This document shows, piece by piece, positions 35,214-63,905 of a stretch of DNA of 64,000 nucleotides. The translations under genes were made by a program, and so were the position numbers. The notes below the pieces were generated by a model. That model did not search any database. It was not told where the DNA came from and worked only from the letters and a program-made list of their open reading frames with translations. Origin of the DNA: an uncultured Candidatus Saccharibacteria bacterium (GTDB lineage Bacteria > Patescibacteriota > Minisyncoccia > Phycocordibacterales > Zambryskibacteraceae); contig CAZDDU010000001.1 of NCBI GenBank assembly GCA_964504255.1, forward strand, positions 33,843-97,842. Direction: 5' to 3'. How positions within the stretch are numbered: the first letter of the stretch is position 1; every line of letters begins with the position of its first letter.

Positions 35214-35240
35214 ACTTGGGTTTTTTGGTATAATACCCGG

Positions 35241-44916: not shown

Positions 44917-44983
44917 TCCAATCCAACCCTAACAATTTGTGCTGTATAATTAGTGCTAGTTATTTATTAAGCATTAATTATCT

Positions 44984-45505
44984 TTGATGAGAAAATTACA
45001 AAATACTGCCGCCGTCTTCTTTATATGTGCGGTCTTTATCCTTACTATAGTCTCAGTATTCGGTGTGTGGGATCTGTTTGACGGAGATGTCGTTTGGAAG
45101 TCGTTCCAGACCCTAGGCCTGCTATCTATTGTTGCGCTAATAATTATCAAGGCAGGCAAGGTTATGGATGACAAGGCTGGCAGCGTCACTCCTCCACTTG
45201 AGATTTTCGCCTCAATAAGAAAGACGGCTTTCGCTATCCTCATTGTTTCAGCATCGCTCCTCGCTCTTCTCGGCGTGATGTCTATTTGGGATGTTATCGC
45301 TGACAAGGATGTGTTGTATAAGTCTCTCGGATCACTCGTAGTTATCGCCTTCTCTGCCGGAGTGGTCAAAGTAACTTGTGATGCTATGGAGGGTGAGGAT
45401 AGGGTTCATGCTCCTGCTACTACCTCAAACCCAGTTCCTGCGCCAGCACCTGCTCCAGCCCCCACGCAGTACACCCAGCAGAGCGTACCCCCACAGAATC
45501 AGTAG
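44984..45505 (+). CDS. hypothetical 4-TM membrane protein with Pro/Ala-rich tail, inserted between rpsG and fusA
   Basis: 173 aa; PAPAPAPAPT C-terminus. Confidence 0.5.
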   Translation: MMRKLQNTAAVFFICAVFILTIVSVFGVWDLFDGDVVWKSFQTLGLLSIVALIIIKAGKVMDDKAGSVTPPLEIFASIRKTAFAILIVSASLLALLGVMSIWDVIADKDVLYKSLGSLVVIAFSAGVVKVTCDAMEGEDRVHAPATTSNPVPAPAPAPAPTQYTQQSVPPQNQ

Positions 45506-45583
45506 GTCCACGCCTTCTTTCCTTGTATTTTTGTAGGTCGAAATGTACTCTAAGGTCAGACACATTCTCACTTTGAGGTAGCG

Positions 45584-45796
45584 ATGATACTTTCAGGTTT
45601 TTCTCCCAACCAGCAGTCTATGTATGGTGTCAGGAAACAGGTTCGGGTCATCAGGGTGACCGGCACCGTCAACGATCCTTGGTATACGATCAAGAACCCA
45701 CTCGGCAAGAAGTATGTTCTCGGCGTCAGAGACCTCCATGGAGTCAGGGTCCTGGGCGTCTTCAAGAGAGAACGCACTAAGAAACCTCGGGCATGA
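45584..45796 (+). CDS. small hypothetical protein (70 aa) with its own SD and terminator
   Basis: GAGGT 5 nt upstream of ATG; hairpin AACCTCGGGCAtgaTGCCTGAGGTT + TTTTC at 45774-45808. Confidence 0.5.
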   Translation: MILSGFSPNQQSMYGVRKQVRVIRVTGTVNDPWYTIKNPLGKKYVLGVRDLHGVRVLGVFKRERTKKPRA

Positions 45797-45897
45797 TGCC
45801 TGAGGTTTTTCATTTGATTATCTATTGAACTTGCGGTATCGTAAGGGCATCTAAGCCATTTAGGCTTTTTATTTTTATCCCAACAAATTAATAATTT

Positions 45898-48066
45898 ATG
45901 GAACGAGATTATCCTTTAGAGAGAGTTCGAAACTTCGGTATTATTGCGCACATCGATGCAGGCAAGACCACGACTTCAGAGCGCGTGCTCTTCTACACCG
46001 GAGCTCAACACAGTATTGGTGAGGTGCACGAAGGTGAGACTACTACTGACTGGATGGAGCAGGAGAGGGAGCGCGGTATTACTATTACTGCAGCTGCTAT
46101 TACATGTTTCTGGGCGCCAACATATCTAAGTGATGCAGATAGAAACGATGCGAAGAAGAAGTTCCGCTTCAACGTGATCGACACTCCTGGGCACATTGAC
46201 TTCACCGTGGAGGTTAAGAGAAGTCTTCGAGTGCTCGATGGCGCAGTGGTCGTCTTCGACGGCGTGGCAGGAGTAGAGCCTCAGTCTGAGACCAACTGGC
46301 GTTATGCCGAGGAAGCTCAGGTGCCTCGCATCTGCTTCATCAACAAGCTCGACCGTACAGGAGCTTCTTTCGAGCGCTCATACAAATCTATTTTAGACAG
46401 ACTTTCTAAGAAGGCGGTTCGCTTCCAGATCCCAATTGGTGAGGAGGACAAGCATGAGGGAGTTATAGACCTACTTAAGATGAAGGCGTACTTCTTCGAG
46501 GGCAACATGGGTAACAAGGTTATAGAGAAGGATATCCCAGCTGAGTACATGGCTGATGCTACCAAGTATCGTGCTGATCTTGTGGAGAGAATCGTAGAGA
46601 ACGACGAGGGTCTCATGACCGCGTACCTAGAGGGTAAGGAGATCTCTATCGAAGCACTCAAGGAGACTTTGAGAAAGGCTGTGATTGCGAACAAGATCTT
46701 CCCTGTGATGACGGGTTCTGCTCTTAAGAACAAGGGAGTACAGCTTGTACTCGATGCGGTTGTTGATTACCTACCAAGTCCACTCGACATCCCCCCAGTG
46801 AAGGGTATTAACCCAGAGACAAATGAAGAGGTACTTAGACATGCGTCTGACACAGAGCCTTTCTCTGCACTCGCCTTCAAGCTACAAGCAGACCCATTCG
46901 TTGGTCAGCTTACGTTCTTCCGCGTGTACTCAGGAACAATTGAGAGTGGTTCTTATATATACAACTCAACTACAGGCAACAAGGAGAGATTAGGACGCAT
47001 TGTTCGTCTTCAGGCCAACCAAAGAGAGGAGGTTAAGAAGGTTTTCGCAGGAGAGATTGCTGCAGCTGTAGGACTCAAGGAGGCGAAGACTTCGCACACC
47101 TTCTCTGACGAAGCAAACCCAATTATCCTCGATCAGATCACCTTCCCAGAGCCAGTTATCTCACTTCGTATCGAGCCTAAGACCAAGGCCGACCAAGAGA
47201 AGATGGGTATGGCACTTAAGCGTCTGTCAGACGAGGATCCAACATTCAGAATTAAGTCTGACTCAGAGACAGGGGAGACTGTGATCATGGGTATGGGTGA
47301 GCTACACCTCGAGATTATTGTCGACCGTATGAAGAGAGAGTTCTCAGTCGAGGCGAATGTGGGCAAGCCTCAGGTGGCATACAAAGAGACTATTACTGGA
47401 TCTGCAGAGGTGGAGAACAAGTACATCAAGCAGACAGGAGGTAAGGGTCAATACGGTCACGTTAAGATCACTATCAAACCAATTGAAGCACTCGACCCAG
47501 AGGCCAAGATTCCTAAGAATGTGCACCGTGAGGAAGGATTCGAGTTCATCGACTCTATTAAGGGAGGAGTTATTCCACAGGAGTTTATCCCAGCTGTTGA
47601 GAAGGGTATTAGAGAGGCAATGGACAGAGGTATCCTTGCAGGATTCAAGATGACAGATATTTCTGCCGAGCTCACTTATGGTTCTTACCACGATGTGGAT
47701 TCTTCGGAAATCGCATACAAGATTGCAGCCTCACAGGCGTTCCAAGAAGCAGCTAGGAAGGCGAAGCCGGTAATACTCGAGCCAATCATGAAGGTTGAGG
47801 TGGTTGTGCCAGAGAAGTTCATGGGAGATATTACTGGTAACCTCTCAAGTAAGCGCGCACAGATCGAAGCAATGGAAGACAGAAACGAACTCAAGGTCGT
47901 ACGTGCCAAGGTGCCTCTATCCGAGATGTTCGGTTATGTAACCAACCTCCGTTCAATGACCGAGGGTAGAGGATCATCAACTATGGAGTTCGACCACTAC
48001 GCTATCGTGCCTAAGAATGTCGAAGCCGATATTATTGAGAAGAGAACCGGTGCTAAGGCTGCATAA
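45898..48066 (+). CDS. fusA: translation elongation factor G
   Basis: [10 protein letters not shown]1, DTPGH; 722 aa. Confidence 0.95.
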
Positions 48067-48095
48067 ATAAAGTAAGTTAGAAAGACAAAACCTTC

Positions 48096-48124
48096 TTGAC
48101 AATCTAGGAGGTTTGTGCTATTAT
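48096..48124 (+). promoter_or_regulatory. near-consensus sigma70 promoter driving the GC-rich SPFH gene
   Basis: TTGACA - 17 nt - TATTAT; AAGGAGG SD 8 nt before the ATG at 48212. Confidence 0.6.
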
Positions 48125-48211
48125 CGAAGTAGAGTACTTTTAGTTGTAAGTTGTGTGTACATGCTTCAAATTCGTAGGTCCACGTAGTTCCCCCTCAAGG
48201 AGGAGTTTCGA

Positions 48212-49273
48212 ATGCCCGGGTTGAAGTTCGTTCTCAACGCTGTTGTCGTACTGCTCTTGGTCTACATCTCGAGCTTCGCGTTCGACCTCATGAACTACCC
48301 CGACGACTTCGCGGTCGCCGGAGGGATCGCCATCCTCGTGGTGGAGTTCCTGGTGGCGATGTACATGATCAAGAAGAACCCCTTCTCCGCGATCTCTCGC
48401 AAGGGAGCGAGCGGGAAGAAGAAGCCGACGAACAAGACGGCGGCCATCATGCTGATCGTCGGTATCGTCGGGGCAAACACGGCCTGCTATCAGGTCGTCG
48501 AGCCCGGACACGCTGGGATCAAGATCAACATGGCCGGTAGTGACCGAGGTGTCTCTGACATCACGGTCCAGACCGGACGTGTGTGGTACAACCCGGTCAA
48601 TACGCGGGTGTTCGAATACCCGACCTTCGTCCAGACAGCTGTTTGGAAGAGGGATTCGGAGCTGAACGAAGAGATCTCGTTCAACAGCAAGGAAGGAATC
48701 ACCTTCACCGCTGATCTGTCGCTTTCGTGGCAGATCCAGACTGACAAGGTGCCGAACTTCTACGTCATGTTCCGCAACGATGATGTGACGGCGTTCACGC
48801 ACGGGTTCCTTCGGAACATCGCGCGCGACGCCTTCACCGAGATCGCGCCCAGTTACACAAGCGAAGAGATCTACAGCACCAAGATGGGCGAACTCGTCAC
48901 TCGGGTCAAGGCCCGCACGGACTCGCTCATCGTCGCATACGGCGTGCATCTCCAGCAGTTCGGCTTCATCGGAGCCCCTCGCCCACCTGAGAACATCGTC
49001 AAGTCTCTCAACCTGAAGACCCAGGCGATCCAGGACGCGAGTGCGGCCGAGAACAAGCTCCGGCAGACGACTGCCGAAGCTCGGATGGCTGTTGCAAAGG
49101 CGCAGGGCGAGGCAGAGGCTAATCGCGCCCTTGCCAGCTCCCTCACCACTTCGATGCTCGAGTGGCGAAGACTGGAGATCACCGAGCAGAGCATCAAGAA
49201 GTGGGATGGGAAGTTGCCGGTCTATTCCGGTGGTACACTTCCCCTGATCCAACTGCCGACGCCGAATCGGTAA
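48212..49273 (+). CDS. SPFH/band-7 (HflC/stomatin-like) membrane protein; GC-rich
   Basis: N-terminal TM; SPFH core (ELNEEISFNSKEGITFTADLSLSWQI...) and AEARMAVAKAQGEAEANRAL coiled-coil tail; about 60% GC versus about 45% in flanks. Confidence 0.7.
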   Translation: MPGLKFVLNAVVVLLLVYISSFAFDLMNYPDDFAVAGGIAILVVEFLVAMYMIKKNPFSAISRKGASGKKKPTNKTAAIMLIVGIVGANTACYQVVEPGHAGIKINMAGSDRGVSDITVQTGRVWYNPVNTRVFEYPTFVQTAVWKRDSELNEEISFNSKEGITFTADLSLSWQIQTDKVPNFYVMFRNDDVTAFTHGFLRNIARDAFTEIAPSYTSEEIYSTKMGELVTRVKARTDSLIVAYGVHLQQFGFIGAPRPPENIVKSLNLKTQAIQDASAAENKLRQTTAEARMAVAKAQGEAEANRALASSLTTSMLEWRRLEITEQSIKKWDGKLPVYSGGTLPLIQLPTPNR

Positions 49274-49339
49274 CTAAGCCGCAAGATGTAAGGAAAAGTC
49301 GTTCGACTGCTCCACATCGAGCGGCTTTTCTGTTGTGTT

Positions 49340-49368
49340 TTGACAACTAGGGAGTTTTGCTTTAACTT
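49340..49368 (+). promoter_or_regulatory. sigma70-like promoter upstream of the cold-shock gene
   Basis: TTGACA - 16/17 nt - TTAACT/TAACTT. Confidence 0.45.
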
Positions 49369-49512
49369 ACGACACAGACTTGTAGGACGACGAGCAATCC
49401 AGCCGTCGAACGATAGGGGGCAGCAATAGTGCACATGTCTCGGAGTAGCGGACAGGCTCGCGCGGGTGCTCATGGTCACAGGGGCAACAAGCGTCGAAGC
49501 AAGAAACCGAAG

Positions 49513-49749
49513 AGCATGCCTGTGAGTCTGCTTGTCTCGGAGAGGCAGCACGGAGTGGTGAAGTGGTTCAGTGAGAGTATGGGCTACGGCTTCATCGGTC
49601 GGAAGAAGGGGACTCCCGATGTCTTCGTCCATTACTCGAGTATTCTCGGCACCGGCTTCAAGAGCCTCGCCGAAGGCAACAGGGTTGCCTTCGATGTCGA
49701 GAGGACGAAGAAGGGTCTCGCGGCTACGAATGTGAGGGTTGTGGACTAA
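49513..49749 (+). CDS. cold-shock domain protein (CspA family); GC-rich; long 5' UTR
   Basis: GVVKWFSESMGYGFI RNP1 motif, VFVHYS RNP2 motif; start chosen at internal Met (track ORF starts at 49429). Confidence 0.75.
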   Translation, partial: SMPVSLLVSERQHGVVKWFSESMGYGFIGRKKGTPDVFVHYSSILGTGFKSLAEGNRVAFDVERTKKGLAATNVRVVD

Positions 49750-49750
49750 T

Positions 49751-49777
49751 CCCGCCAAATGGCGGGTTTTTCTTTTC
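49751..49777 (+). terminator. intrinsic terminator after csp
   Basis: CCCGCCaaatGGCGGG followed by TTTTTCTTTTC. Confidence 0.7.
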
Positions 49778-49819
49778 TAGATCCTCATGTATAGTGCTTA
49801 ACAGGCCCTTATTCCGGAG

Positions 49820-50194
49820 GTGGGGATGTACACGGATGGTAGTATTGGTGGTGATGAGGAGACGGTGGGGAGGGATGCTCAACCTATCACAGCTGAGGAG
49901 TGGATCATTCTCGAGAGACTCTTCTCGAGCGATCGCACAAGGGAGGTGTTGGTGGCCCTTCGCCTGAACGACAACGATCCCGTCGAGGTGTCGGAGTTCA
50001 CTGAGATCCGCTTCACGAGGAGTGTCCTCGGGGGTATGTGTTCTGTCCTCACCCGAGAGAAGGTTGAATTAACCCTAGCTCTGCTTTACCCCAAGAAGCC
50101 CATGCGGGCTAACAAGGTCTTCTTCAAGCGAGTGGTGAGACCCAAGGTCACCGACTTCCAAATGTCTCAGATTCGAGCTGCGCCCTGTCACTAG
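49820..50194 (+). CDS. hypothetical protein, GC-rich
   Basis: 124 aa; about 55% GC; no motif recognised. Confidence 0.45.
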   Translation: MGMYTDGSIGGDEETVGRDAQPITAEEWIILERLFSSDRTREVLVALRLNDNDPVEVSEFTEIRFTRSVLGGMCSVLTREKVELTLALLYPKKPMRANKVFFKRVVRPKVTDFQMSQIRAAPCH

Positions 50195-50210
50195 ACGGGG
50201 CTTTTTCTTT
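50182..50210 (+). terminator. intrinsic terminator after hypothetical gene
   Basis: GCCCTGTCactaGACGGGGC followed by TTTTTCTTT. Confidence 0.55.
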
Positions 50211-50217
50211 GCTGGGA

Positions 50218-50246
50218 TTGACTATTATTGGGCTAAACAGTAATAT
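50218..50246 (+). promoter_or_regulatory. near-consensus sigma70 promoter about 175 nt upstream of tuf
   Basis: TTGACT - 17 nt - TAATAT. Confidence 0.55.
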
Positions 50247-50420
50247 GTCGCGAGCGCTATACCGCTTCTGCTTGTTCTTTGAGGCCTCTCAATATGGGCT
50301 GAGCTAAGCGGTTTTGCGTTCCTCGTCACTACGAGGTTGAATCGGAACTGGAAGAAGATGTGTTCTCGAACTTCTTCTGTTTCTGAAAAACTTAATTAAT
50401 TAAATTTATACATAAAATAT

Positions 50421-51623
50421 ATGGCAGACGCTTTTGATCGCTCAAAGCCACACGTAAACGTCGGTACTATCGGCCACGTTGACCACGGCAAGACGACTCT
50501 AACCGCAGGTATTCTCCATGTCCTCGACATGAATAAGGACAAGGGTTACGGTGCTCGTGTTGAAGCAATTGATAAGATCGACTCAGCTCCTGAGGAGCGT
50601 GAGAGAGGTATTACTATCGCCCTCCACCACTCAGAGTACTGGACACCAGCTCGTCACTACGCACACATCGATGCGCCAGGACACGCTGACTACATCAAGA
50701 ACATGATCACCGGTGCCGCTCAAATGGACGGTGCAGTGCTCGTGGTTGCAGCAACTGACGGTGTTATGCCTCAGACTCGTGAACACATCCTTCTTGCTAA
50801 GCAGGTTGGTGTGCCTAAGATTATCGTCTTCCTAAACAAGTGTGACATGGTTCCTGACAAGGAGCTTATCGACCTTGTGGAAGAGGAGATCCGCGATCTT
50901 CTTACTAAGCACGACTTCGACGGTGCTAACGCGCCTGTGATCCGTGGCTCAGGTCTTAAGGCTCTTGAGGCTAAGGATATGAGTGATGAATGGGCACAAA
51001 AGGTGTTCGAACTCATTTCTACTCTTGATACCTACTTCCCAAATCCAGTTCGTGAGATGGACAAGCCATTCCTTATGCCAATTGAGGACATCTTCTCTAT
51101 CGAAGGTCGTGGAACAGTGGTTACAGGTCGTATCGAGAGAGGTATGGTCAAGGTTGGTGAGGATGCAGAGATCATCGGTCTCCGCGACACCATGAAGACT
51201 ACTGTTACTGGAATTGAAATGTTCAACAAGCAGCTCCAAGAGGGTATGGCCGGAGACAACGCCGGAATCCTACTCAGAGGTGTGAAGAAGGAGGACCTAT
51301 CTCGCGGTCAAGTTATCGCAAAACCAGGTTCAGTTACTCCTCACACTGAGTTTACAGCTGAGGTGTACATCTTGAAGAAGGAGGAAGGTGGTCGCCACAC
51401 TCCATTCTTCACTGGATACAAGCCACAGTTCTACATCCGTACAACTGACGTTACCGGAGAAGTAACTCTAAACGCAGGTGTCGAGATGATCATGCCTGGA
51501 GACACAGCAACCTTCAATGTGAAGTTGACCGCTCCTGTCGCTCTTGAGGATCAGACTCACTTCGCTATTCGCGAGGGTGGTAAGACAGTGGGTGCCGGTG
51601 TCGTAACAAAGGTCGTTAAGTAA
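50421..51623 (+). CDS. tuf: translation elongation factor Tu
   Basis: [22 protein letters not shown]. Confidence 0.95.
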
Positions 51624-51648: not shown

Positions 51649-52011
51649 ATGGCTAAAGCAAAAGTAACAACAAAAAAAGCTGTGAAAGCAGGAGCATCCG
51701 AGGGTGTCGGCAAGCTTCGAATCCGTGTCAGAGCTTATGAGAGCAAGATCCTTGATGTATCAGTGAAGCAAATCATCGACACTGCTCTCCGCTATGACGC
51801 AGAGATTCAGGGTCCGATACCTCTTCCAACAGAGATTAAGAAGTACACAGTGAACCGCGCTGCGTTCGTATACAAGAATGCTCGAGAACAATTCGAAATG
51901 CGAATACACAAGCGCTTAGTGGACATTGTTAATCCTTCTGGTAAGGTAATCGAGGCTCTAACAAACTTGTCTCTCCCCAGTGGAGTGAACATAGATGTGA
52001 AGATGATCTAG
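51649..52011 (+). CDS. rpsJ: 30S ribosomal protein S10 (N-terminal Lys/Ala-rich extension)
   Basis: LRIRVRAYESKILD...GPIPLPT. Confidence 0.9.
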   Translation: MAKAKVTTKKAVKAGASEGVGKLRIRVRAYESKILDVSVKQIIDTALRYDAEIQGPIPLPTEIKKYTVNRAAFVYKNAREQFEMRIHKRLVDIVNPSGKVIEALTNLSLPSGVNIDVKMI

Positions 52012-52041
52012 TTCGACAAGCTCACTACGAGTAAAAACATG
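52008..52041 (+). repeat. junction element copy (TAGTTCGACAAGCTCACTACGAGTAAAAAC) between rpsJ stop and rplC ATG
   Basis: See the copy at 31491. Confidence 0.7.
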
Positions 52042-52473
52042 AAATCCATCATTACCAAGAAAGTAAATATGACCCAAATCTTCGACGAAAGTGGACGGGC
52101 TTTGCCCGTGACCATCCTTGTTGCAGCCGAGCCTATTGGCGAGGGTGCCCTTGTAGAGGGGGATATGGTTGTAATAACAGGTACTTCTAAGGGTAAGGGA
52201 TTCCAAGGTGTCGTTAAACGTCACGGCTTCAAAGGAGGCAGACGCTCACACGGTCAGAAGCACTCAGAACGTGAGCCAGGCTCCATTGGTGGAGGTGGAC
52301 GCGCTGGAGGTAGAGTGGCTAAGGGTATGCGCATGGCAGGTCGTATGGGTAACGAAACCGTTACTCAGAAGAACCTAAAGGTGGTTAAGATTCTTCCTGA
52401 ATCTAACGAGATCTTTATCCATGGTGCAGTCCCTGGTAGACGTGGAAGCAAGGTAATGATTAAGACCAACTAA
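52039..52473 (+). CDS. rplC: 50S ribosomal protein L3 (short form)
   Basis: [13 protein letters not shown]...GRMG. Confidence 0.85.
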
Positions 52474-53162: not shown

Positions 53163-53492
53163 ATGGCTGAAAAGAAAACAACAAAGAAGGAGAAGAAGGT
53201 GGTTGAGAAGACAGAAGTGTCGAAGTCTGTCATCGTCTCTCCAAGAATGACCGAGAAGGCGGTACTCTCTCAGGAGTCTAGAGGAGTCTATGTCTTCAAT
53301 GTGAAGCGTGACTCAACCAAGAAGCAGATTACCGCTTCTGTTAAGGCGGACTACAAGGTAACTCCACTTAAGGTGAGAACCTCCCAAGTCCCTTCTAAGC
53401 AGAAGTTCTCTCGCGGCAAGTGGGGTGTGAAGGGCGGCGGCAAGAAGGCGTATGTATATTTGAAGAAGGGCGATAAGATCGCAATCGCATAG
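53163..53492 (+). CDS. rplW: 50S ribosomal protein L23
   Basis: Position and composition; 109 aa. Confidence 0.85.
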   Translation: MAEKKTTKKEKKVVEKTEVSKSVIVSPRMTEKAVLSQESRGVYVFNVKRDSTKKQITASVKADYKVTPLKVRTSQVPSKQKFSRGKWGVKGGGKKAYVYLKKGDKIAIA

Positions 53493-53525
53493 TTCGACTG
53501 CGCTCACTACATGTAAACCAAAATG
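53489..53525 (+). repeat. junction element copy (TAGTTCGACTGCGCTCACTACATGTAAACC) between rplW and rplB
   Basis: See the copy at 31491. Confidence 0.65.
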
Positions 53526-54362
53526 AAACGATACAAACCAACAACCAAATCGAGGAGAAACATGACTGGAATCAACTTCCGCAAGTTGATCACGTCTACT
53601 ACTCCAGTTAAGTCACTCACTACTGGGTTCAAGAGAGGTGACGGACGCAACAACACTGGTCGTATCACTACTCGTCACAAGGGAGGTGGACACAAGAGAC
53701 GCTTCCGAGATATTGATTTCGTATTTGATAAGAAGAATGTTCCCTTCACTGTGAAGACAATTGAGTACGATCCAAACCGCTCTGGCTTTATCGGACTTGT
53801 AGCTTACAAGGATGGAGAGAGGAGATACATCTTGCTCTCAAAGAGTATGCGAGTTGGAGACACTTTTGTCGCAAGTGAGACAGCAACCATTACTCCTGGC
53901 AACAGACTCCCACTTAAGAGCATCCCAGTTGGTACTTTCGTATATAACGTAGAGCTTAAACCTCAAGGTGGTTCTAAGATCGCTCGCTCAGCTGGTAACT
54001 ATGTAGAAGTGTCTGCTAAGGATGCTGGTTATGTAGACTTGAAGATGCCATCAAGTGAGGTTCGCAAAGTTCTGGAGACTTGTTGGGCAACTATTGGTGA
54101 AGTGTCGAACGACGAGAATAGACTCGTAAACCTAGGCAAGGCAGGACGCTCAAGATGGCTTGGTATCCGCCCAACTACTCGAGGTACTGCGATGAACCCA
54201 GTAGACCACCCACACGGAGGAGGAGAGGGTAGACAGGGTCGAGGTCGCAGACGCGCTATCTCAGTCTACGGTAAGCCAACAGGCAAGGGCCAGAAGTCGA
54301 GAAGAGCAAAGAAGTACTCGAACAAGCATATTGTCAGAAGAAGAAAGGTTGGAAAGAAATAG
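53523..54362 (+). CDS. rplB: 50S ribosomal protein L2
   Basis: GRNNTGRITTRHKGGGHKR...GTAMNPVDHPHGGGEG. Confidence 0.95.
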   Translation: MKRYKPTTKSRRNMTGINFRKLITSTTPVKSLTTGFKRGDGRNNTGRITTRHKGGGHKRRFRDIDFVFDKKNVPFTVKTIEYDPNRSGFIGLVAYKDGERRYILLSKSMRVGDTFVASETATITPGNRLPLKSIPVGTFVYNVELKPQGGSKIARSAGNYVEVSAKDAGYVDLKMPSSEVRKVLETCWATIGEVSNDENRLVNLGKAGRSRWLGIRPTTRGTAMNPVDHPHGGGEGRQGRGRRRAISVYGKPTGKGQKSRRAKKYSNKHIVRRRKVGKK

Positions 54363-54395
54363 CAGGTCCGCTCACTACAAGTAAGAACCAAAAAA

Positions 54396-54419
54396 ACTCG
54401 CTCAAGGGCGAGTTTTTTG
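54396..54419 (+). terminator. intrinsic terminator (copy 1 of 3 identical hairpins)
   Basis: ACTCGCtcaaggGCGAGT followed by TTTTTTG. Confidence 0.75.
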
Positions 54420-54459
54420 TTAAGGTGGTGGGAGATACGACCTCAACCAGGAGCCCATT

Positions 54460-54843
54460 ATGTCTAAAAGGCATGGTACCGCCAGACCAGTTGGTTCTTT
54501 CCGTGATGGAGATGTTGTTAAGGGTAAAATAATCACCGTCTTTGCAACTACTCGTAATACCGATCTCGCCGAAGGTCGCGGCCAAACAATTGACCATTCA
54601 TATCATTTGAGCGCGCACGACGCGAAGACTGGAGCTCATGGTATCGATGTGATGGGATCAGATGGTAAGACCAAAGAAGTTTTGGCTCTTCAAGAAGACG
54701 AAAGCGGGAGAGTTTATCTCTTCGCCAACAACTCTTCACCGGTTACCATTAAAGAGGATCCTGAAGCACTTGCCAAACTTCGGAAAAGCGCCTTCAACAA
54801 GTTGAGTTCTAGTGAGAGGGCGGCACTGAATCTTGGTGATTAG
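54460..54843 (+). CDS. hypothetical small protein (cassette between rplB and rplJ)
   Basis: 127 aa, no motif recognised. Confidence 0.45.
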   Translation: MSKRHGTARPVGSFRDGDVVKGKIITVFATTRNTDLAEGRGQTIDHSYHLSAHDAKTGAHGIDVMGSDGKTKEVLALQEDESGRVYLFANNSSPVTIKEDPEALAKLRKSAFNKLSSSERAALNLGD

Positions 54844-54858
54844 ATCTTGTTGGTCATG

Positions 54859-54881
54859 ACTCGCTCAAGGGCGAGTTTTTT
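54859..54881 (+). terminator. intrinsic terminator (copy 2, identical hairpin)
   Basis: ACTCGCTCAAGGGCGAGTTTTTTG. Confidence 0.75.
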
Positions 54882-54895
54882 GATATATTCGACAA

Positions 54896-55384
54896 ATGAA
54901 AAAATTAGATAAAAAGGCTGTTTGGTTGTTCTTCCTTCAGTACGTTTGGAGCTTTGTTTACCTTGGAGCTTTCGTGGTCGCTATTACACTTTCTGCTCTT
55001 GATGGGGAGATTTCTGTTATGGCGGTACTTAACCTGATTGGCTGGGTTCTGCTGACCGTATTACTTGTTTCCTATTTTGTATCACATCTTGCTTACAAGT
55101 TTTATCTATACGAACTTTCGAATATTGGGTTCAAAAAGGAATCTGGAATTATTTGGAAGCAGTATGTCACCATCCCTTACGATAGAATTCAGAATGTAGA
55201 TATTTATCGAGGAGTTCTAGCAAGAATCCTTGGTCTCTCGGACCTGCAAATTCACACCGCTGGAGTTGGTGGAGTAGCGATGGGTGAAGGTAGGTTACCT
55301 GGACTCTCGATGGCCGATGCGGAAGTAATGCGAGATGAGCTAATAAACAGATCTAGACAATCAAGATCAGGTCAGGGTCTTTAA
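54896..55384 (+). CDS. bacterial PH-domain (bPH_2/YdbS-like) membrane protein
   Basis: Two TM helices then YVTIPYDRIQNVDIYRGVLARILGLSDLQIHTAG, typical of the bPH_2 fold. Confidence 0.6.
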   Translation: MKKLDKKAVWLFFLQYVWSFVYLGAFVVAITLSALDGEISVMAVLNLIGWVLLTVLLVSYFVSHLAYKFYLYELSNIGFKKESGIIWKQYVTIPYDRIQNVDIYRGVLARILGLSDLQIHTAGVGGVAMGEGRLPGLSMADAEVMRDELINRSRQSRSGQGL

Positions 55385-55391
55385 AGAAAAA

Positions 55392-55414
55392 ACTCGCTCA
55401 AGGGCGAGTTTTTT
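55392..55414 (+). terminator. intrinsic terminator (copy 3, identical hairpin)
   Basis: ACTCGCTCAAGGGCGAGTTTTTTG. Confidence 0.75.
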
Positions 55415-55450
55415 GATAGTCTCAAGGCAGACGACTCCAGGGAGGATTAA

Positions 55451-55669
55451 ATGGCGCATGGGCCTTTAGTGTTGACGATCAATCGAGATGAAGAGCGGGC
55501 GCTTAAGTTCGCAGAAGAAGTAGTAGAGCGATGTCCAGAAGTTCGCGTGAGCAAGATGATTGATTTCGGTCCACCAGAACTCTGCCATGGGATTGGTCGC
55601 TACATCTGGCCGGAAGGCAAGATCAGGAAGTTTTTGAACAAGAAGTTCAATTTGGAGCCCCCGCTGTGA
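55451..55669 (+). CDS. small hypothetical protein (72 aa) with GGGAGG SD
   Basis: SD GGGAGG 7 nt upstream; terminator AGCCCCcgctgtgaGGGGCT + TTTTTC at 55656-55679. Confidence 0.45.
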   Translation: MAHGPLVLTINRDEERALKFAEEVVERCPEVRVSKMIDFGPPELCHGIGRYIWPEGKIRKFLNKKFNLEPPL

Positions 55670-55689
55670 GGGGCTTTTTCTTATCTACA

Positions 55690-55887
55690 CATTTATACCA
55701 AGGCCCGGCCTTGGTAAGGGGAGGTTGTCAGGGTAGGCAAATTGATGTAGAGTAGTCGACAAAGGTCAAAGACAGAAGGCCCTTCGAATACCTCAGGGTA
55801 AACGATATAAGCCCTTCCGAGATCACTCTCAATCCGAGACCTTTGTGGTCGATTTTATTTGTCTAAATAACAGACAAACACAAAACA
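55690..55887 (+). promoter_or_regulatory. candidate ribosomal protein L10 leader (autoregulatory 5' UTR of rplJ-rplL)
   Basis: About 200-nt structured ORF-less region directly upstream of rplJ, begins with perfect hairpin ACCAAGGCCcgGGCCTTGGT; identity by position only. Confidence 0.35.
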
Positions 55888-56376
55888 ATGGCAATTAATA
55901 AACAAAAGAAAGGAGAGATCATAGATAAGCTCTCGAAGGCTGTCAAGGATGCAAAGTCCTTGGTCTTCGTGAACTTCCATGGACTCAAGGTATCCGACAC
56001 TACCAACCTCAGGCGCGAGCTTAGGAAGGAGGGTGTGGAGTACCAAGTATCTAAGAAGACTCTCACCAAGCGCGTACTCGATTCCGAGAAGTTTGAGGGC
56101 ACAATGCCCGAACTCGAGGGCGAGCTCGCTATGGCATGGAGTGAGGATCTCATCGCACCTGCACGAGGTGTACACACTTTCGCTAAGAAATTTCCAGAGG
56201 CTCTAAAGATCCTTGGAGGAGTCTTCGAAGGTAGGTATATGAGTAAGGCAGAGATGATGGAGATCGCTACCATACCTCCAGTTGAGGTACTTAGAGGTAA
56301 GTTTGTAAACATTATTAACTCACCAATCCAGCGCTTCGCAATAGCTCTTGGAGAGGTAGCAAAGAAGAAAAATTAA
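55888..56376 (+). CDS. rplJ: 50S ribosomal protein L10
   Basis: [45 protein letters not shown]. Confidence 0.9.
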
Positions 56377-56377
56377 A

Positions 56378-56737
56378 ATGACAAAAGAACAAATCATCGA
56401 GGCAGTTGAGAAGTTGTCAGTCCTCGAACTCAACACACTCGTAAAGGCAATTGAGGAGAAGTGGGGAGTATCAGCTACAGCGGTTGCTGCCGCTGGTCCT
56501 GCCGCTGGTCCTGCTGAGGAGGCTAAGAGTACAGCCGATGTAGAACTTACTGACGGCGGTGCAAACAAGATTGCAGTCATCAAGGTCGTGAAGGAAGTAC
56601 TAGGACTTGGTCTCAAGGAGGCTAAGGACATGGTAGACGGTGCTCCAGCAATGCTTAAGGCCGGTATGAAGAAGGAGGACGCCGACGCTCTTAAGAAGAA
56701 GATCGAGGAGGCTGGTGGAAAGGTTACTCTTAAGTAA
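56378..56737 (+). CDS. rplL: 50S ribosomal protein L7/L12
   Basis: [31 protein letters not shown]...[22 protein letters not shown]. Confidence 0.95.
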
Positions 56738-56763
56738 GTTTTCTCCAAAAGTTTCTCATCACA

Positions 56764-56790
56764 AAACTCCCCGAAAGGGGAGTTTTGTTC
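56764..56790 (+). terminator. intrinsic terminator after rplL
   Basis: AAACTCCCCgaaaGGGGAGTTT followed by TGTTC. Confidence 0.7.
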
Positions 56791-56831: not shown

Positions 56832-57404
56832 ATGGGGAAATCAATTTCACACTTATTTGGGAGTGAAGCGAAGGTCAAGATCATGCGTCTCTTTGTCTTC
56901 AACAAAGGATCAATATTTACTGCGAAGACTATTAGCGAGAGAGTGCAGGCAAGTGCCAAGGTGGTGAGGAAGGAGCTCACTAGTCTTATCAAGGCTGGTC
57001 TTGTATATAAGAGAGCAAGGGGTTATGTCCTTAATGCTGAGTATGACTATCTTAAGGCGGTAGAACGATTCTTGATCGAGGCCACACCAATCTCGGAGAA
57101 GGAGATCATAAGGAAGCTCTCTAAGGCGGGTAGTATGCGACTCATCCTTACTTCCGGCGTCTTCAAGCAGGACTCTGAGGCTAGAGTAGATCTACTTGTG
57201 GTGGGGGATAAGATCAAGGAGAGCACTCTTCTTCGCGCTATTAGCTCTCTTGAGGCAGATTTGGGCAAGGAGCTCCGCTTTGCGGCCTTTGAGACTCCTG
57301 ATTTCAAGTACCGCCTAGGTATATATGACAAACTTGTTCGCGACATCTTAGACTATCCACACAGGAAATTGGTCGATAAGGTCGGTCTCCAACCTAAGGT
57401 ATAA
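56832..57404 (+). CDS. winged-helix domain protein, function unknown
   Basis: TISERVQASAKVVRKELTSLIKAGLV wHTH-like N-terminus; start at Met40 of track ORF. Confidence 0.5.
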   Translation: MGKSISHLFGSEAKVKIMRLFVFNKGSIFTAKTISERVQASAKVVRKELTSLIKAGLVYKRARGYVLNAEYDYLKAVERFLIEATPISEKEIIRKLSKAGSMRLILTSGVFKQDSEARVDLLVVGDKIKESTLLRAISSLEADLGKELRFAAFETPDFKYRLGIYDKLVRDILDYPHRKLVDKVGLQPKV

Positions 57405-57455: not shown

Positions 57456-58148
57456 ATGTATATCAGCAACTGGGGAAACGTGCTTACGCTCTCGTTCCAG
57501 AATCTCTGGATGGGTATCGTTAGTTTCGTCCCGAACCTTGTCGTCGCGCTTATCATCGTCATTCTCGGATGGCTCGTTGGCGCATTGCTCGGCCGGGCAA
57601 TTTGGCAAGTGTTCCGCTCTTTGAAGGTTGACGAAGCACTTCGTCGCGCAGGATTCGAAGGATTCCTCCGCCGTGGTGGTGTTGATCTTGACTCGGGCGC
57701 GTTTATTGGCGGTCTTGTAAAGTGGTTTGTAGTAGTTGTTTTCTTGGTAGCGGCCTTCGACGTTCTCGGCCTTACTCAGGTTAACCTCTTCCTACAGCAG
57801 GTTGTTATAGCTTACCTTCCTCGCGTTATCGTAGCCGCTTTGGTCATCCTCGTTGGAGGTGTCATCGGCGACGTAGTCGAGAGAGTTGTAGTTACAGCAG
57901 CTCGTACTGCAGAGATTCGCTCAGCACACTTCGCTGGAGCAGTGTCTAAGTGGGCGGTTTGGGTCTTCGCTATATTGGTAGCGCTTTCTCAACTCGGCAT
58001 CGCAACGGCTTTCAGCCAGACACTCTTCACCGGTATCGTTATCGCTATCTCACTAGCACTTGGTCTCTCCTTTGGTCTTGGTGGCCAGGAGGCAGCAGCT
58101 CGATTCATCGAGAGGCTCCGAGGCGACATGGGTGGCAAGCACAACTAA
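57456..58148 (+). CDS. membrane protein with duplicated conserved-TM-helix repeats (MscS-N-terminal-like)
   Basis: Two repeats of amphipathic-helix + TM segments; elevated GC (about 54%). Confidence 0.5.
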   Translation: MYISNWGNVLTLSFQNLWMGIVSFVPNLVVALIIVILGWLVGALLGRAIWQVFRSLKVDEALRRAGFEGFLRRGGVDLDSGAFIGGLVKWFVVVVFLVAAFDVLGLTQVNLFLQQVVIAYLPRVIVAALVILVGGVIGDVVERVVVTAARTAEIRSAHFAGAVSKWAVWVFAILVALSQLGIATAFSQTLFTGIVIAISLALGLSFGLGGQEAAARFIERLRGDMGGKHN

Positions 58149-58184: not shown

Positions 58185-58209
58185 AAGAGGCTCTAAACAG
58201 CCTCTTTTT
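58185..58209 (+). terminator. intrinsic terminator
   Basis: AAGAGGCTctaaacAGCCTCTT followed by TTTTG. Confidence 0.7.
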
Positions 58210-58225
58210 GCTACTTATAAATTGC

Positions 58226-58254
58226 TTGACAAGTAGGGCGAAGTATGCTAAGGT
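58226..58254 (+). promoter_or_regulatory. sigma70-like promoter of GC-rich cassette gene A
   Basis: TTGACA - 17 nt - TAAGGT; AGGAGG SD 7 nt before the ATG at 58316. Confidence 0.5.
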
Positions 58255-58315
58255 TAATACAGTAGTTTCCCGTTCCTTCAGCAGCAAAGGCACCCAACTT
58301 CTAGGAGGCAGTCGT

Positions 58316-58951
58316 ATGACCAAGCCCGCCAAGCAGTCGAAGCCCCAGTCCACGCGCTTCTCGCTCGACCACGATGGGCTCACCGAGTTCCTCGTAGCGT
58401 TCCAGATCATCTGGGCCGCGGTGCGGGCGCTCTACAAGGGTCCCCACGGCGAGAACGACCAGACGCGGAACTTCGTCCGACGCATGGAGCAGATGGTCCG
58501 GCACGCCAGCCCTCTCCTCGAGGACGGCGAGACCGACCACAACTCCTACGAGAAGACGATCAAGCTCGGCGCGGCGCTCATGCGCCAGATCGAGGAGTAC
58601 ATCGACGACATCCTCGATTCCGACCGCGCGAGGGAGTTCTTCGACCGCGCTTCGAGCGAGATCCAGGAGATCTGGCCCGAGGTCTGGGCGGCGAAGAAGA
58701 ACGAGATCCTCGAGAGCCGTGCCCGCTTCCAGCAGGCGAACGCCTCGGAGACCGCGGAGGACCTCAAGAAGATCGTCCTCGCATACAACGCGACGACCGA
58801 GCTCCTTGCCAGGGCCAAGGCCGAGGCCGAGAACAAGGCGTCTGCCGAAGCCAACCGTCTCCGTCAGGCGAAGGAGGCTCAGGAGAAGCTCGCCCGGTTC
58901 GAGAAGAACCGCACGCGCGGCCGCTCTGTCCTGGCCCAGCTCTCGGCCTGA
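58316..58951 (+). CDS. hypothetical protein A, very GC-rich (about 65%), coiled-coil C-half; C-terminal tail RTRGRSVLAQLSA
   Basis: Diverse amino-acid composition on + strand versus L/R/G-rich antisense ORF; SD AGGAGG. Confidence 0.6.
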   Translation: MTKPAKQSKPQSTRFSLDHDGLTEFLVAFQIIWAAVRALYKGPHGENDQTRNFVRRMEQMVRHASPLLEDGETDHNSYEKTIKLGAALMRQIEEYIDDILDSDRAREFFDRASSEIQEIWPEVWAAKKNEILESRARFQQANASETAEDLKKIVLAYNATTELLARAKAEAENKASAEANRLRQAKEAQEKLARFEKNRTRGRSVLAQLSA

Positions 58952-58992
58952 ACTGCACAACGCACGCTAACGCGTGCCCGCCCCACGAAAGT

Positions 58993-59019
58993 CCCCACGG
59001 ACAATCGTGGGGCTTTCTT
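58993..59019 (+). terminator. intrinsic terminator after gene A
   Basis: CCCCACGgacaatCGTGGGG followed by CTTTCTT; second hairpin GCACGCtaaGCGTGC just upstream. Confidence 0.6.
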
Positions 59020-59028
59020 ATTCATACA

Positions 59029-59057
59029 TTGACATTACTGCTATATTGTGATAATAT
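59029..59057 (+). promoter_or_regulatory. consensus sigma70 promoter of GC-rich cassette gene B
   Basis: TTGACA - 17 nt - TAATAT. Confidence 0.6.
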
Positions 59058-59118
59058 TAAATTAGATAAGCATTGTCTTAGCTGTACTTGAACAACTTAC
59101 CCTATTCCGGAGTTCTTG

Positions 59119-59700
59119 ATGAACCAGAAGAAGGCTGTTTCCGAACGAGCCCTGGGCTCTGTCCCGGTGGTCATGTTCTTCCTCAACGTGAACGGCGAGC
59201 ACCTCGTCCCCGACTCGGCGACGAAGGTTCCCGACAACCAGACGGCAGGGAAGTCACACACCGGTAAGCCCGGTATCATGCTCTGCCAAGGCAAGTCGGT
59301 GGATCTCGAGGGAGCACTCAAGGAGATCGAGCTCCGAGGGTACCTCCCCAAGAAGTTCACCTCCATCCATCGGTTCCAAGGAATCATGCATCGCATGGTG
59401 CTCGTCTGCGTTCACAAGGACGCGCCCGACAACGGCGAGGCGGCGAGCTTCACCGCCGAGCAGAGGGAGGATTTCCTCAAGCTGCTTCAGGGCTACAACT
59501 GGGACACCACCGTCTACCGGAATTTCTCCGAGACGGGAGGTAACTTCATCCTCATGGCCGGCAACCCCGATCGCCGGGAGGAGAAGGAGATCCTTCGGGT
59601 GAACGACGCGAACGAGTTCGAGATGGTGGATGCGGAGAAGGTCAAGACCGACCAGTCTCGGACGCGTGGTCGGGAAGCCCTCTCGCAGATCAGCGCGTAG
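59119..59700 (+). CDS. hypothetical protein B, GC-rich; C-terminal tail RTRGREALSQISA
   Basis: 193 aa; GGAG SD; shares a 12-aa C-terminal motif with gene A. Confidence 0.6.
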   Translation: MNQKKAVSERALGSVPVVMFFLNVNGEHLVPDSATKVPDNQTAGKSHTGKPGIMLCQGKSVDLEGALKEIELRGYLPKKFTSIHRFQGIMHRMVLVCVHKDAPDNGEAASFTAEQREDFLKLLQGYNWDTTVYRNFSETGGNFILMAGNPDRREEKEILRVNDANEFEMVDAEKVKTDQSRTRGREALSQISA

Positions 59701-59729
59701 GATCAGTTGGTGAGCCCTTCCTCGGGCTA

Positions 59730-59754
59730 GGCCGTCACATTGTGACGGCCTTTT
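59730..59754 (+). terminator. intrinsic terminator after gene B
   Basis: GGCCGTCACattGTGACGGCC followed by TTTTAC. Confidence 0.7.
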
Positions 59755-59776: not shown

Positions 59777-59805
59777 TTGACAATAGAGCCCCATTTCTAT
59801 ACTAT
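59777..59805 (+). promoter_or_regulatory. sigma70-like promoter upstream of rpsS
   Basis: TTGACA - 17 nt - TACTAT. Confidence 0.5.
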
Positions 59806-59864
59806 ATTTGCCTACGTCCCGCATGCGGGATTAAGTTTTAAATAGTTCGAATACCTAACTTAAA

Positions 59865-60209
59865 GTGACCAGATCAAGCAAAAAAGGACCATATGTAGAC
59901 CCTCGCGTGATGAAGAAGATCGAGGGCAAGAAGCCAGGCGAAACCGGGGTTATTAAGACCTGGTCTCGCGCATGCCAAATCGCTCCAGAGATGATCGGAT
60001 TCACCTTCGGAGTGCACAACGGTCGCGACCATGTCGAGGTCTTCGTCACAGAGGACATGATCGGTCACAGACTAGGTGAGTTCTCACTCACTCGTAAGTT
60101 CGTGAAGCACGGTGGTAAGATGCAGAAGGATATTGAGTCTAAGGCTAAGGAGGCCGAGATCAACGCAGCTAAGGCAGCTAAGGCTTCTACCGACACTAAG
60201 AAGAAATAA
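59865..60209 (+). CDS. rpsS: 30S ribosomal protein S19 (GTG start, Lys/Ala-rich C-terminal extension)
   Basis: [15 protein letters not shown]...GHRLGEF. Confidence 0.9.
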
Positions 60210-62541: not shown

Positions 62542-62568
62542 TTTTAGTTCGATAAACTCACTACAAGT

Positions 62569-63117
62569 ATGGAAACTCTAAAGACAAAGGTAGCAAAGGC
62601 ATTCAAGGAGATGAAGTCACATGGCTACAAGAATGCTATGCAGTCACCAAAGATCGAGAAGGTGATTGTTAATGTCGGTGTCGGCTCAATGAAGGATAAG
62701 AACAAGATCAAGGTTGTTGAGGACCGCTTGATGAAGATCACTGGCCAGAAGGCCTCACCAAGAGGAGCTAAGGTAGCTATTGCTAACTTCAAGAGTCGTC
62801 AGGGTGACATCGTTGGTTACCAAGTAACTCTAAGAGGTGCACGCATGTACGACTTCCTCGAGCGACTTCTACACATCGCTCTTCCTCGTACCAAGGACTT
62901 CAGGGGTATCTCGAAGACCTCAGCTGACGAGATGGGTAACTACACCCTAGGTATCAAGGAGCACACCATCTTCCCCGAGACAGCAGACGAAGAGCTCAAG
63001 GATGTCTTCGGTCTCTCAGTAACTGTCGTCACCTCAGCCAAGAGCAAGAGCGAGGTCCAAGACTTCCTCGAATACCTCGGCTTCCCATTTAAGAAGGTAG
63101 AAGAAAAGAAGAAATAG
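62569..63117 (+). CDS. rplE: 50S ribosomal protein L5
   Basis: 182 aa; L5 core motifs. Confidence 0.95.
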   Translation: METLKTKVAKAFKEMKSHGYKNAMQSPKIEKVIVNVGVGSMKDKNKIKVVEDRLMKITGQKASPRGAKVAIANFKSRQGDIVGYQVTLRGARMYDFLERLLHIALPRTKDFRGISKTSADEMGNYTLGIKEHTIFPETADEELKDVFGLSVTVVTSAKSKSEVQDFLEYLGFPFKKVEEKKK

Positions 63118-63139
63118 TTCACAGAAAATAATTTTGACT

Positions 63140-63166
63140 TAATAGCGCGAAGGCGCTATTTTGTTT
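63140..63166 (+). terminator. intrinsic terminator after rplE
   Basis: AATAGCGCgaagGCGCTATT followed by TTGTTTG. Confidence 0.7.
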
Positions 63167-63191
63167 GAAGACCCACATCTCAGGAGACGCT

Positions 63192-63377
63192 ATGAGCGAG
63201 AAGAAGAAGCCACCAGTACCGCTGAACGAGATCGTGCTCACGCCAGAAGAGCGACAATTCCTCACGCCCGAGTTTGTCGAAGAGACGACTATGGGCGCTA
63301 TCAGGTATGTTGAGGAGAGGCTCTCCGTCACAGAGTCACCAGAGTTCAGTGCGTCGAGAACCAAGCCAGCAAAGTAA
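63192..63377 (+). CDS. small hypothetical protein (61 aa) with SD
   Basis: CAGGAGAcgctATG; followed by hairpin GCCAGCaaagtaaGCTGGC + TTTTT at 63365-63388. Confidence 0.45.
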   Translation: MSEKKKPPVPLNEIVLTPEERQFLTPEFVEETTMGAIRYVEERLSVTESPEFSASRTKPAK

Positions 63378-63415
63378 GCTGGCTTTTTCATATAAAACGA
63401 CATAAATTTGAGTAC

Positions 63416-63443
63416 TTGACAATAGTTGTGAAGTGTGTATAAT
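63416..63443 (+). promoter_or_regulatory. perfect-consensus sigma70 promoter
   Basis: TTGACA - 16 nt - TATAAT. Confidence 0.65.
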
Positions 63444-63447
63444 ATAA

Positions 63448-63873
63448 ATGTACGGTGAGAGTCTGGCAGAAGCCGGGCACTGCCGTATGAAGTACAAGAT
63501 TCATTTCCTTACACCGGTGACGGAATGGTTCTGCTCTCGAGACAGAGTGCGAATGGTTCCCGATGGCGATGAAGCCGGTATCTCCCTGCAGTCGCGTATG
63601 CTCGGAAGAGGCGCGATCAAGTTAATTTGGTAAAGTGGTAACCTGATCTTCGCTGCCCTACGGCCGCGCGAACTACCGAGAGAGGCGGTTTCCTCTCCAG
63701 GTTATCTCGTAGGGATAGAAAGTCGGGGCGTTCTAGACGCCTAAAGGAGATCCGAGTGATGTCTCGCAATACTCACTCCCTCTGTAAGTCCGACAACTAC
63801 TCTCTGCGATTCTCGCACAATGTGGCCTCGGCCACTCACAATACAGCGCTCACCTTCGGGTAGAGCGCTTTTT
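63448..63873 (+). ncRNA. candidate about 430-nt structured transcript of unknown identity; contains only a 61-codon leaderless ORF (63448-63633)
   Basis: Consensus promoter ends 5 nt before 63448; GC-rich, hairpin-dense; ends in intrinsic terminator AGCGCTCaccttcgggtaGAGCGCT + TTTTC (63845-63873); expected rpsN/rpsH/rplF genes are absent here. Confidence 0.35.
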
Positions 63874-63881
63874 CAATTTAT

Positions 63882-63905
63882 AAAAAACCCACGCACGCGC
63901 GTGGG
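63882..63905 (-). terminator. intrinsic terminator of the convergent minus-strand gene
   Basis: Minus strand reads AGCCCCACGCgcgtGCGTGGG followed by UUUUUUA. Confidence 0.65.

Follow-up and report, generated by a model that had tools for sequence, protein, structure and literature searches.

How do identical palindromic sequences come to lie behind consecutive and unrelated genes of a ribosomal protein operon? The question is raised by a 64-kb stretch of DNA from an uncultured bacterium (contig CAZDDU010000001.1, positions 33,843 to 97,842 of the forward strand; the whole stretch is called the window below), a cellular core-gene region encoding ribosomal proteins, EF-G, EF-Tu, NusA, tig and clpP. 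An earlier note on this DNA had pointed to three identical copies of a 24-nt sequence located 3' of rplB, of a 127-aa open reading frame (ORF) and of a gene encoding a bPH_2 membrane protein. Comparison with related loci suggests an answer, which is given a probability of about 0.6 because both transcription and recombination are read from sequence comparison only: the repeat belongs to a short terminator-promoter module, denominated module A, and recombination at this shared module moves small, moron-like promoter-ORF-terminator cassettes in a split S10 operon.

The 24-mer ACTCGCTCAAGGGCGAGTTTTTTG is found in three exact copies on the + strand, at 54396-54419, 54859-54882 and 55392-55415. The exact scan of the window agrees with the positions given in the earlier note. 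Pfam bears out rplB (L2) and the bPH_2 gene, and the copies start 34 nt (rplB), 15 nt (ORF127) and 7 nt (bPH_2 gene) 3' of the stop codons. The 72-aa ORF described as next in line, with a GGGAGG Shine-Dalgarno sequence (SD) and a different terminator, was found as well, these signals being located at 55440-55445 and 55654-55677, respectively. No fourth copy was found in the window allowing up to 3 mismatches, and 100 shuffled windows gave 0 matches. A possible extension of the repeat into the flanks had been raised; similarity does continue beyond the 24-mer, but only to 28-32 nt at most (A-run, hairpin, T-run, G, A/T, TA), and 29 nt are common to copies 1 and 3. The array is made up as follows.

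53523-54362, + strand: rplB (L2), with which the upstream half of the split S10 operon ends; Pfam Ribosomal_L2_N and Ribosomal_L2_C
54390-54426, + strand: module A copy 1; A7 run, hairpin at 54395-54414 with loop CAAG, T6, and TG-T-TAAGGT, a predicted extended -10 (54418-54426) for ORF127
54460-54843, + strand: ORF127, of an uncharacterised small-protein family; SD AGGAG at 54449-54453
54859-54889, + strand: module A copy 2; hairpin, T6 and TG-A-TATATT, with a predicted -10 at 54884-54889 for the bPH_2 gene
54896-55384, + strand: bPH_2 membrane protein, 162 aa; two transmembrane segments and a PH domain (Pfam PF03703, E 6.4e-15)
55387-55422, + strand: module A copy 3; A6 run, hairpin, T6 and TG-A-TAGTCT, with a predicted -10 at 55417-55422 for ORF72
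55451-55669, + strand: ORF72, which of all the small genes in the array is the one most constantly found in relatives; SD GGGAGG at 55440-55445
55654-55682, + strand: module B terminator (GGAGCCCCCGCTGTGAGGGGCTTTTT) after ORF72, from the scan for terminator-like sites; hairpin at 55654-55677

Module A and module B

All copies of the repeat form an 8-bp stem capped by a CAAG loop, and a U6/T6 tract comes next (-14.4 to -16.3 kcal/mol, z -2.5 to -3.2), and make up the sole multi-copy hairpin family of the window. As stem-loops with a U-tract located just 3' of stop codons, the three copies are predicted intrinsic (Rho-independent) terminators. No Rfam family was found for the hairpins, which gave only chance-level matches to attenuator leaders. 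The three-copy layout has been found at 99-100% identity in independent assemblies of other samples (L015, L018, L036 and L037). The order of the elements is the same in these, and an assembly artefact is therefore ruled out.

The T-run is followed in register by TG-N-TANNNT in 3/3 window copies, in which the hexamers all differ (TAAGGT, TATATT, TAGTCT). Among the ten related loci described below, the pattern G-N-TA-NNN-T is found in the same register after 20 of the 21 copies of the hairpin family; it was found after none of nine look-alike hairpins of unrelated contigs. Module A is probably an intrinsic terminator, the U-tract of which runs straight into a predicted extended -10 promoter (GAGTTTTTTG-N-TANNNT). 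ORF127 and ORF72 have short leaders, carrying AGGAG and GGGAGG, respectively. The ATG of the bPH_2 gene lies 6 nt 3' of TATATT, and a leaderless mRNA is therefore predicted.

The same arrangement (terminator U-tract, TGnTAnnnT, 6-7 nt, ATG) is found also 5' of tig and tpiA (16980-17031 and 35222-35243). The hairpins are unrelated there, and the arrangement therefore looks like ordinary promoter usage of the organism; it suggests that leaderless mRNAs starting from extended -10 promoters are common in it.

Some joints feature a second type of junction, module B, in which a GGGGC-type terminator has its 5' arm inside the last codons of the upstream ORF. In ORF72 the last codons (EPPL-stop) are the 5' arm of the gene's own terminator. 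The tail of module B in relatives is CTTTTTTGTTTGCAA, which supplies a -35 box (TTGCAA); TAGGGT or TAAGT-type -10 boxes are found 16-17 nt further on. A B terminator precedes the rplJ promoter as well. Having each a predicted promoter and terminator of its own, ORF127, the bPH_2 gene and ORF72 look like autonomous, self-contained promoter-ORF-terminator units.

Related loci and cassette movement

Relatives were gathered by hairpin scans, by exact-protein look-ups and from the few homologues of ORF127 and ORF72. The comparison set includes ten related loci and eight gene orders between rplB and rplJ, among which the following (A and B, modules; 127, bPH and 72, the cassettes of the window).

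L028, L012: rplB, A, 72
L029, L033: rplB, A, bPH, A, 72
Window, L036: rplB, A, 127, A, bPH, A, 72
L002: rplB, B, bPH, A, 127, A', phd-like, B
L026: rplB, A, bPH, A, 72, B, phd-like, B, 110 aa, A, 72', B
L027: rplB, A, DUF3592, A, 72, B, 103-family, A, 59 aa, B, 92 aa, B
L023: A, phd-like, B, 127, A, Ice-binding, CAP, 103 aa, B, A, 72, B

Cassettes are gained, lost and reordered at the strain level, with breakpoints located in the module. The joints carry either the module A hairpin family or the module B type, and the sequence left of the hairpin goes with the upstream gene, that right of the U-tract with the downstream gene. Some of the contigs encoding one identical ORF72 protein sequence (P0009) have the bPH cassette and others lack it. 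Compared with the window, L029 shows a gap of 464 nt, which is exactly one hairpin-to-hairpin period (T1-T2). L028 features a hybrid hairpin, combining the loop of the rplB-proximal copy of L033 (TCTCAG) with the right flank of the distal copy of L033 (GTTAGTCT); the crossover is therefore located within GCGAGTTTTTTG. In L026 two ORF72 paralogues (3039-3324 and 4034-4317), sharing 42% protein identity, are found behind 56 nt of identical hairpin-promoter-leader sequence, which argues that the module has been homogenised or exchanged independently of the coding sequence. The module is better conserved than the genes that it serves: the outer stem ACTCGC/GCGAGT is near-invariant in the 21 copies, only the central 6 nt being variable, and rplB genes of relatives are 85-93% identical.

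The earlier note read the identical terminators as the mark of an insertion module present in several copies, and this reading is upheld and sharpened. Cassettes are absent, present or reordered in relatives, and breakpoints fall in the hairpin; the unit at the joints, however, is a terminator plus a predicted promoter rather than a terminator alone. A second terminator-promoter type alternates with it, and no dedicated recombination system, such as that also envisaged in the note, has been found.

The following course of events is proposed. Module A would end the rpsJ-rplB transcript, and every cassette transcript, and restart transcription for the next gene. The same short module, being present at each joint, would double as the crossover point. 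Exchange between two direct copies would delete the cassette in between, possibly as a circle carrying one module. Integration of such a circle, or unequal exchange, would add or reorder cassettes, leaving a copy of the module on both sides; this would explain the identical terminators found around unrelated genes. In the window the shared tract measures 24-29 nt; most relatives have just 10-12 nt of it on either side of a variable loop. The pathway is probably of the short-homology or slippage type, or RecA-dependent, rather than relying on a dedicated enzyme; homologies being short, palindrome-aided slippage or a short-homology pathway is as likely as RecA-dependent recombination. The copies of the window are identical and those of L033 differ in the loop, which suggests recent events or gene conversion in the window lineage.

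Several points weigh against cassette movement by recombination at module A. The loci sampled are about ten and come from one narrow clade. Promoters and terminators are predictions based on consensus sequences; the extended -10 sites are not called by the promoter scan, which demands a -35, and one module A copy (L023 757) lacks a good -10. For RecA to recombine efficiently, the shared tract is short. Any direction given to an event is conjectural, and the circles are hypothetical. Identity between the window and L029 is a mosaic over the whole region (bPH 98.4%, ORF72 88.6%, rplJ 97.3%, helix-turn-helix gene 86.6%); recombination is therefore frequent over the whole region and not confined to the hairpins. 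Lastly, the near-invariant stem could result from selection for a binding site, and not from homogenisation.

This last point leads to a different explanation, according to which the hairpin has been kept identical as a sequence-specific operator, a protein or RNA site co-regulating termination, and the indel breakpoints are incidental. The invariance of the stem next to a variable 6-nt centre in the 21 copies fits this explanation, as do the conservation of the module above that of the adjacent coding sequence and the presence of a conserved winged-helix protein gene just 3' of rplL. Yet compensatory changes of the stem (structure versus sequence) are not seen, and the hairpin is linked to no regulator. 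Nor would an operator do away with recombination at the module, which both the hybrid hairpin and the indels of exactly one repeat period call for. The operator is rather unlikely as the whole explanation, and it is compatible with recombination at the same site. One ancestral gene-plus-terminator unit might also have been duplicated in tandem, its coding parts diverging afterwards; the diverged ORF72 paralogue that L026 hosts behind an identical upstream module would fit such a course. ORF127, bPH_2 and ORF72, however, are mutually dissimilar and belong to different families, and non-coding modules are unlikely to remain identical while coding sequences diverge past recognition; this origin of the array is hardly credible. 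A dedicated site-specific system, integron-like or hairpin-specific, might alternatively capture and excise the cassettes, the hairpin acting like an attC site. The array is cassette-like, with one conserved palindrome per cassette, and a tyrosine recombinase is encoded at 12115-13053. This recombinase, the only one of its class in the window, is however of the XerC/D type (241 bits), scores 124 bits against a cut-off of 265 with the integron-integrase model, and is located 42 kb away among housekeeping genes. No recombinase is adjacent to any related locus. The attC sites of integrons measure 57-141 nt and feature R and L boxes, and integron cassettes are promoterless; here the cassettes appear to own promoters, and the repeat of 28-32 nt, with its hairpin of about 28 nt, lacks attC features. 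An integron was rejected on these grounds, and a dedicated system of any kind is very unlikely. It is equally doubtful that this Parcubacteria lineage runs a cassette-capture platform in a ribosomal protein operon, in which folded hairpin DNA would be read, attC-like, by a specific recombinase or by Xer. If it did, small genes would be plugged into standard promoter/terminator modules beside an operon that ranks among the most highly expressed in the cell.

The three copies would be meaningless if the hairpin were the generic terminator of the organism, present, as the earlier note had put it, after hundreds of genes, or a dispersed element resembling the repetitive extragenic palindromic (REP) sequences. 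The part of this genome examined is 64 kb, and similar hairpins have arisen in unrelated bacteria, an example being a 28-nt identical match in Acinetobacter silvestris. But the window hosts no further copy, and about 20 other terminator-like sites in the 44-64 kb interval have stems and sequences unrelated to module A. The 21-nt core is found in only 3 of 185,579 species, one genome having been scanned per species among GTDB representatives. One is a close relative, the Parcubacteria metagenome-assembled genome (MAG) DAORIT01 (L002), which has one exact 21-mer in the whole MAG, at the rplB locus. The others, an Acinetobacter and a Saccharimonadales MAG, host single copies that look convergent. 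A degenerate hairpin pattern was found at 11 metagenome loci; the only one belonging to the clade (L012) has it directly after rplB. Distant ORF127 homologues found in other contexts (L021 and L025) have no hairpin beside them, and the module is therefore tied to the locus and not to ORF127. In view of the window, GTDB and metagenome scans, and of the differing terminators, a generic terminator or REP element was rejected as highly improbable. REPs are known from tens to hundreds of dispersed genomic copies, and are associated with RAYT (REP-associated tyrosine transposase) genes; no Y1 transposase was found among about 60 window ORFs run through Pfam.

The split S10 operon and the cassette proteins

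The genes of the window are ordered rpsJ, rplC, rplD, rplW, rplB, the cassettes, rplJ, rplL, a winged-helix gene, an MscS-like gene, two high-GC ORFs, rpsS, rplV and rpsC. As rpsS starts at 59865, the normally contiguous rplB-rpsS junction is interrupted by 5.5 kb, and rplJ-rplL are part of the interrupting block, as the earlier note had stated. Features of the interval other than the array are listed below.

54369-54384, + strand: orphan copy of an intercistronic motif, CGCTCACTACAAGTAA, after rplB and with no cistron behind; elsewhere the motif stands just before the next cistron
55725-55753, + strand: predicted rplJ promoter, TTGTCA-17-TAGAGT, from the promoter scan
55725-55887, + strand: rplJ promoter and structured 5' leader, orthologous to near-threshold L10_leader matches in relatives
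55888-56737, + strand: rplJ-rplL (L10, L12), assigned by Pfam; between rplB and rpsS in all relatives examined
56761-56788, + strand: rplL terminator AAAACTCCCCGAAAGGGGAGTTTT, 66% like module A
56832-57404, + strand: winged-helix protein, a conserved part of the inserted block
57456-58148, + strand: MscS-like membrane protein, a conserved part of the inserted block
58208-59751, + strand: high-GC, strain-variable cassettes ORF247/211 and ORF194, each with its own promoter and terminator (predicted)
59777-59805, + strand: predicted promoter TTGACA-17-TACTAT before rpsS, from the promoter scan
59865-60209, + strand: rpsS, restarting the downstream half of the S10 operon

Homology searches gave no support to the defence or toxin folds that had been suspected in the three small proteins. 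ORF127 and ORF72 have no match in Pfam, NCBIfam or PADLOC, and the bPH_2 protein none beyond its Pfam domain; a defence or toxin content of the array was therefore discarded. Among 5.8 billion proteins, ORF72 is confined to five clusters. The close relatives of ORF127 form seven clusters, to which a profile search adds 308 distant representatives of about 100-130 aa, lacking any Pfam domain and any relative of solved structure. Sequence and profile searches of PDB were empty or gave insignificant matches, and the AlphaFold model of ORF127 is unusable (pLDDT 46). The 'phd-like' ORF of relatives has a sub-threshold Phd/YefM match (16.5 bits versus a cut-off of 29.8). ORF127 matches the phage family phrog_5370, which has no function assigned (E 1.7e-6), and the bPH_2 protein has a weak match to a PHROG of the 'moron' category. 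A phage origin was considered and set aside: 2.9 million viral contigs yielded no relative of ORF127 or ORF72 and no module copy. The GC content of the three cassettes is host-like.

The 5' leader of rplJ had been called an L10 leader. No Rfam match to L10_leader (RF00557) was obtained in the window at E up to 10, but the orthologous leaders of L026 and L002 score 43.0 and 35.4 bits with the model, near the gathering score of 44. In the alignment of the leaders the closing helix is conserved, internal hairpins are present, and 2 compensatory pairs are found. A variable hairpin insert (55782-55812) is longer in the window lineage than in L002, L028 and L033, and probably accounts for the missing score. 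The label is plausible only.

The winged-helix protein is encoded directly after rplL in all relatives. It matches the PADLOC candidate-defence family PDC-M05A (E 1.3e-13) and weakly resembles regulators of the Csa3/CasR type; it has no Pfam match above cut-off. Further downstream, the ORFs at 58208-58951 and 59116-59700 have 61-66% GC, versus about 47% for the window, a strong predicted promoter and terminator each, and no family match; they look like a recent foreign acquisition. In a 99%-identical strain (L037/L017), genes of 211, 506 and 179 aa replace ORF247/211 and ORF194, and the breakpoint is located directly 3' of the terminator at 58993-59018, in the interval from the MscS-like gene to rpsS.

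Other ribosomal operons of the window are also interrupted. The spc operon is broken after rplE (63118-63905) by a small ORF (63165-63377) with its own terminator. A perfect TTGACA-16-TATAAT promoter follows (63416-63443), and then about 430 nt including only a 61-aa ORF and having no Rfam match, which could correspond to an uncharacterised RNA or to a leaderless small gene. Further extra genes of the str/S10 cluster (44916-45898 and 48066-50421) are an ORF lacking a family between rpsG and fusA, and genes for an SPFH/Band-7 protein, a cold-shock protein and a 124-aa ORF between fusA and tuf. The rplC gene (52039-52473) encodes just 144 aa in the window and in L002, L026, L031 and L036; bacterial L3 has usually about 210 aa, and the product looks short.

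An intercistronic motif of 26 nt, T(A/G)(G/A)TTCGACAAGCTCACTAYRARTAA, starts on a stop codon and ends 0-7 nt 5' of the next ATG. It is found at 25536-25561, 31491-31516, 52009-52034, 53490-53516 and 62545-62570; three of these junctions are ribosomal (rpsJ/rplC, rplW/rplB and rplX/rplE) and two are not. Half copies are located at 54369-54384 and 59843-59850; on the minus strand the motif is found at 20669-20621. The starts of rplB and rplE, which are those read at motif junctions, have no evident SD, and the motif might be a signal for translational coupling or processing. The orphan copy after rplB may be a relic of the ancestral junction.

Known systems and meaning

The closest described system is represented by the PeSL (promoter-early stem-loop) cassettes of T4-type phages, in which terminator and promoter motifs are found around ORFans in hyperplastic regions (Arbiol et al. 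2010, PMC2839356; Comeau et al. 2014, PMC4122927). Indels and replacements that set close relatives apart arise through PeSLs, mini-circles being the intermediates (PMC2839356, PMC4122927). Both systems feature a compact conserved motif, combining a terminator stem-loop and a sigma-70-type promoter (predicted, in our case), upstream of ORFans in a variable region; in both, breakpoints of indels and replacements fall in the motif, and the moved gene brings along its own promoter and terminator, here again predicted. PeSLs, however, are about 100 bp long and number about 50 per phage genome, whereas module A measures about 35 nt, has an extended -10 overlapping the U-tract, and is found in three type A copies per locus, in the S10 operon of a cellular, Parcubacteria-like chromosome. 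Mini-circles have been described for PeSLs; those of module A are hypothetical, and its promoter and terminator activities are predicted.

Looser parallels can be drawn with three other systems. The morons of lambdoid phages are promoter-ORF-terminator units inserted between conserved genes. Similarly, the small genes described here are found as apparent autonomous units between genes of a conserved operon, and are dispensable and variably present in relatives, and the PHROG matches of ORF127 and of the bPH_2 protein add to the likeness. In contrast to morons, they have no phage or prophage context, no relatives of ORF127 and ORF72 in viral contigs, and a host-like GC content. Integrons share with the locus the arrays of unrelated small genes, one imperfect palindrome each, and a content varying by strain. 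Here, however, IntI, attI and Pc are missing, the palindrome is a plain terminator, and cassettes have their own predicted promoters. REPs and BIMEs (bacterial interspersed mosaic elements) are, like module A, short palindromes following stop codons, able to terminate transcription and to serve recombination; the copies described here are instead confined to 54390-55422, none being found elsewhere in the 64 kb.

A literature search gave no report of the shuffling of terminator-promoter cassettes in Parcubacteria, in other cellular genomes or in a cellular ribosomal protein operon. By this comparison the principle is already known from the PeSLs of T4-type phages and, more loosely, from phage morons, and the setting in a cellular core operon would be new. 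The practical impact is modest, because the functions of the cassette proteins remain unassigned.

The locus provides a concrete example at the level of sequence: small genes seem to become portable through a short terminator-promoter module, which also seems to steer where they are gained and lost, namely at a safe joint between genes. It also indicates that an S10 operon, contiguous as a rule, can be divided into units with promoters of their own, as predicted here, without loss of genes. If the proposed model is true, module A would amount to a minimal 'expression cassette' made by nature, and could guide the search for similar hotspots elsewhere.

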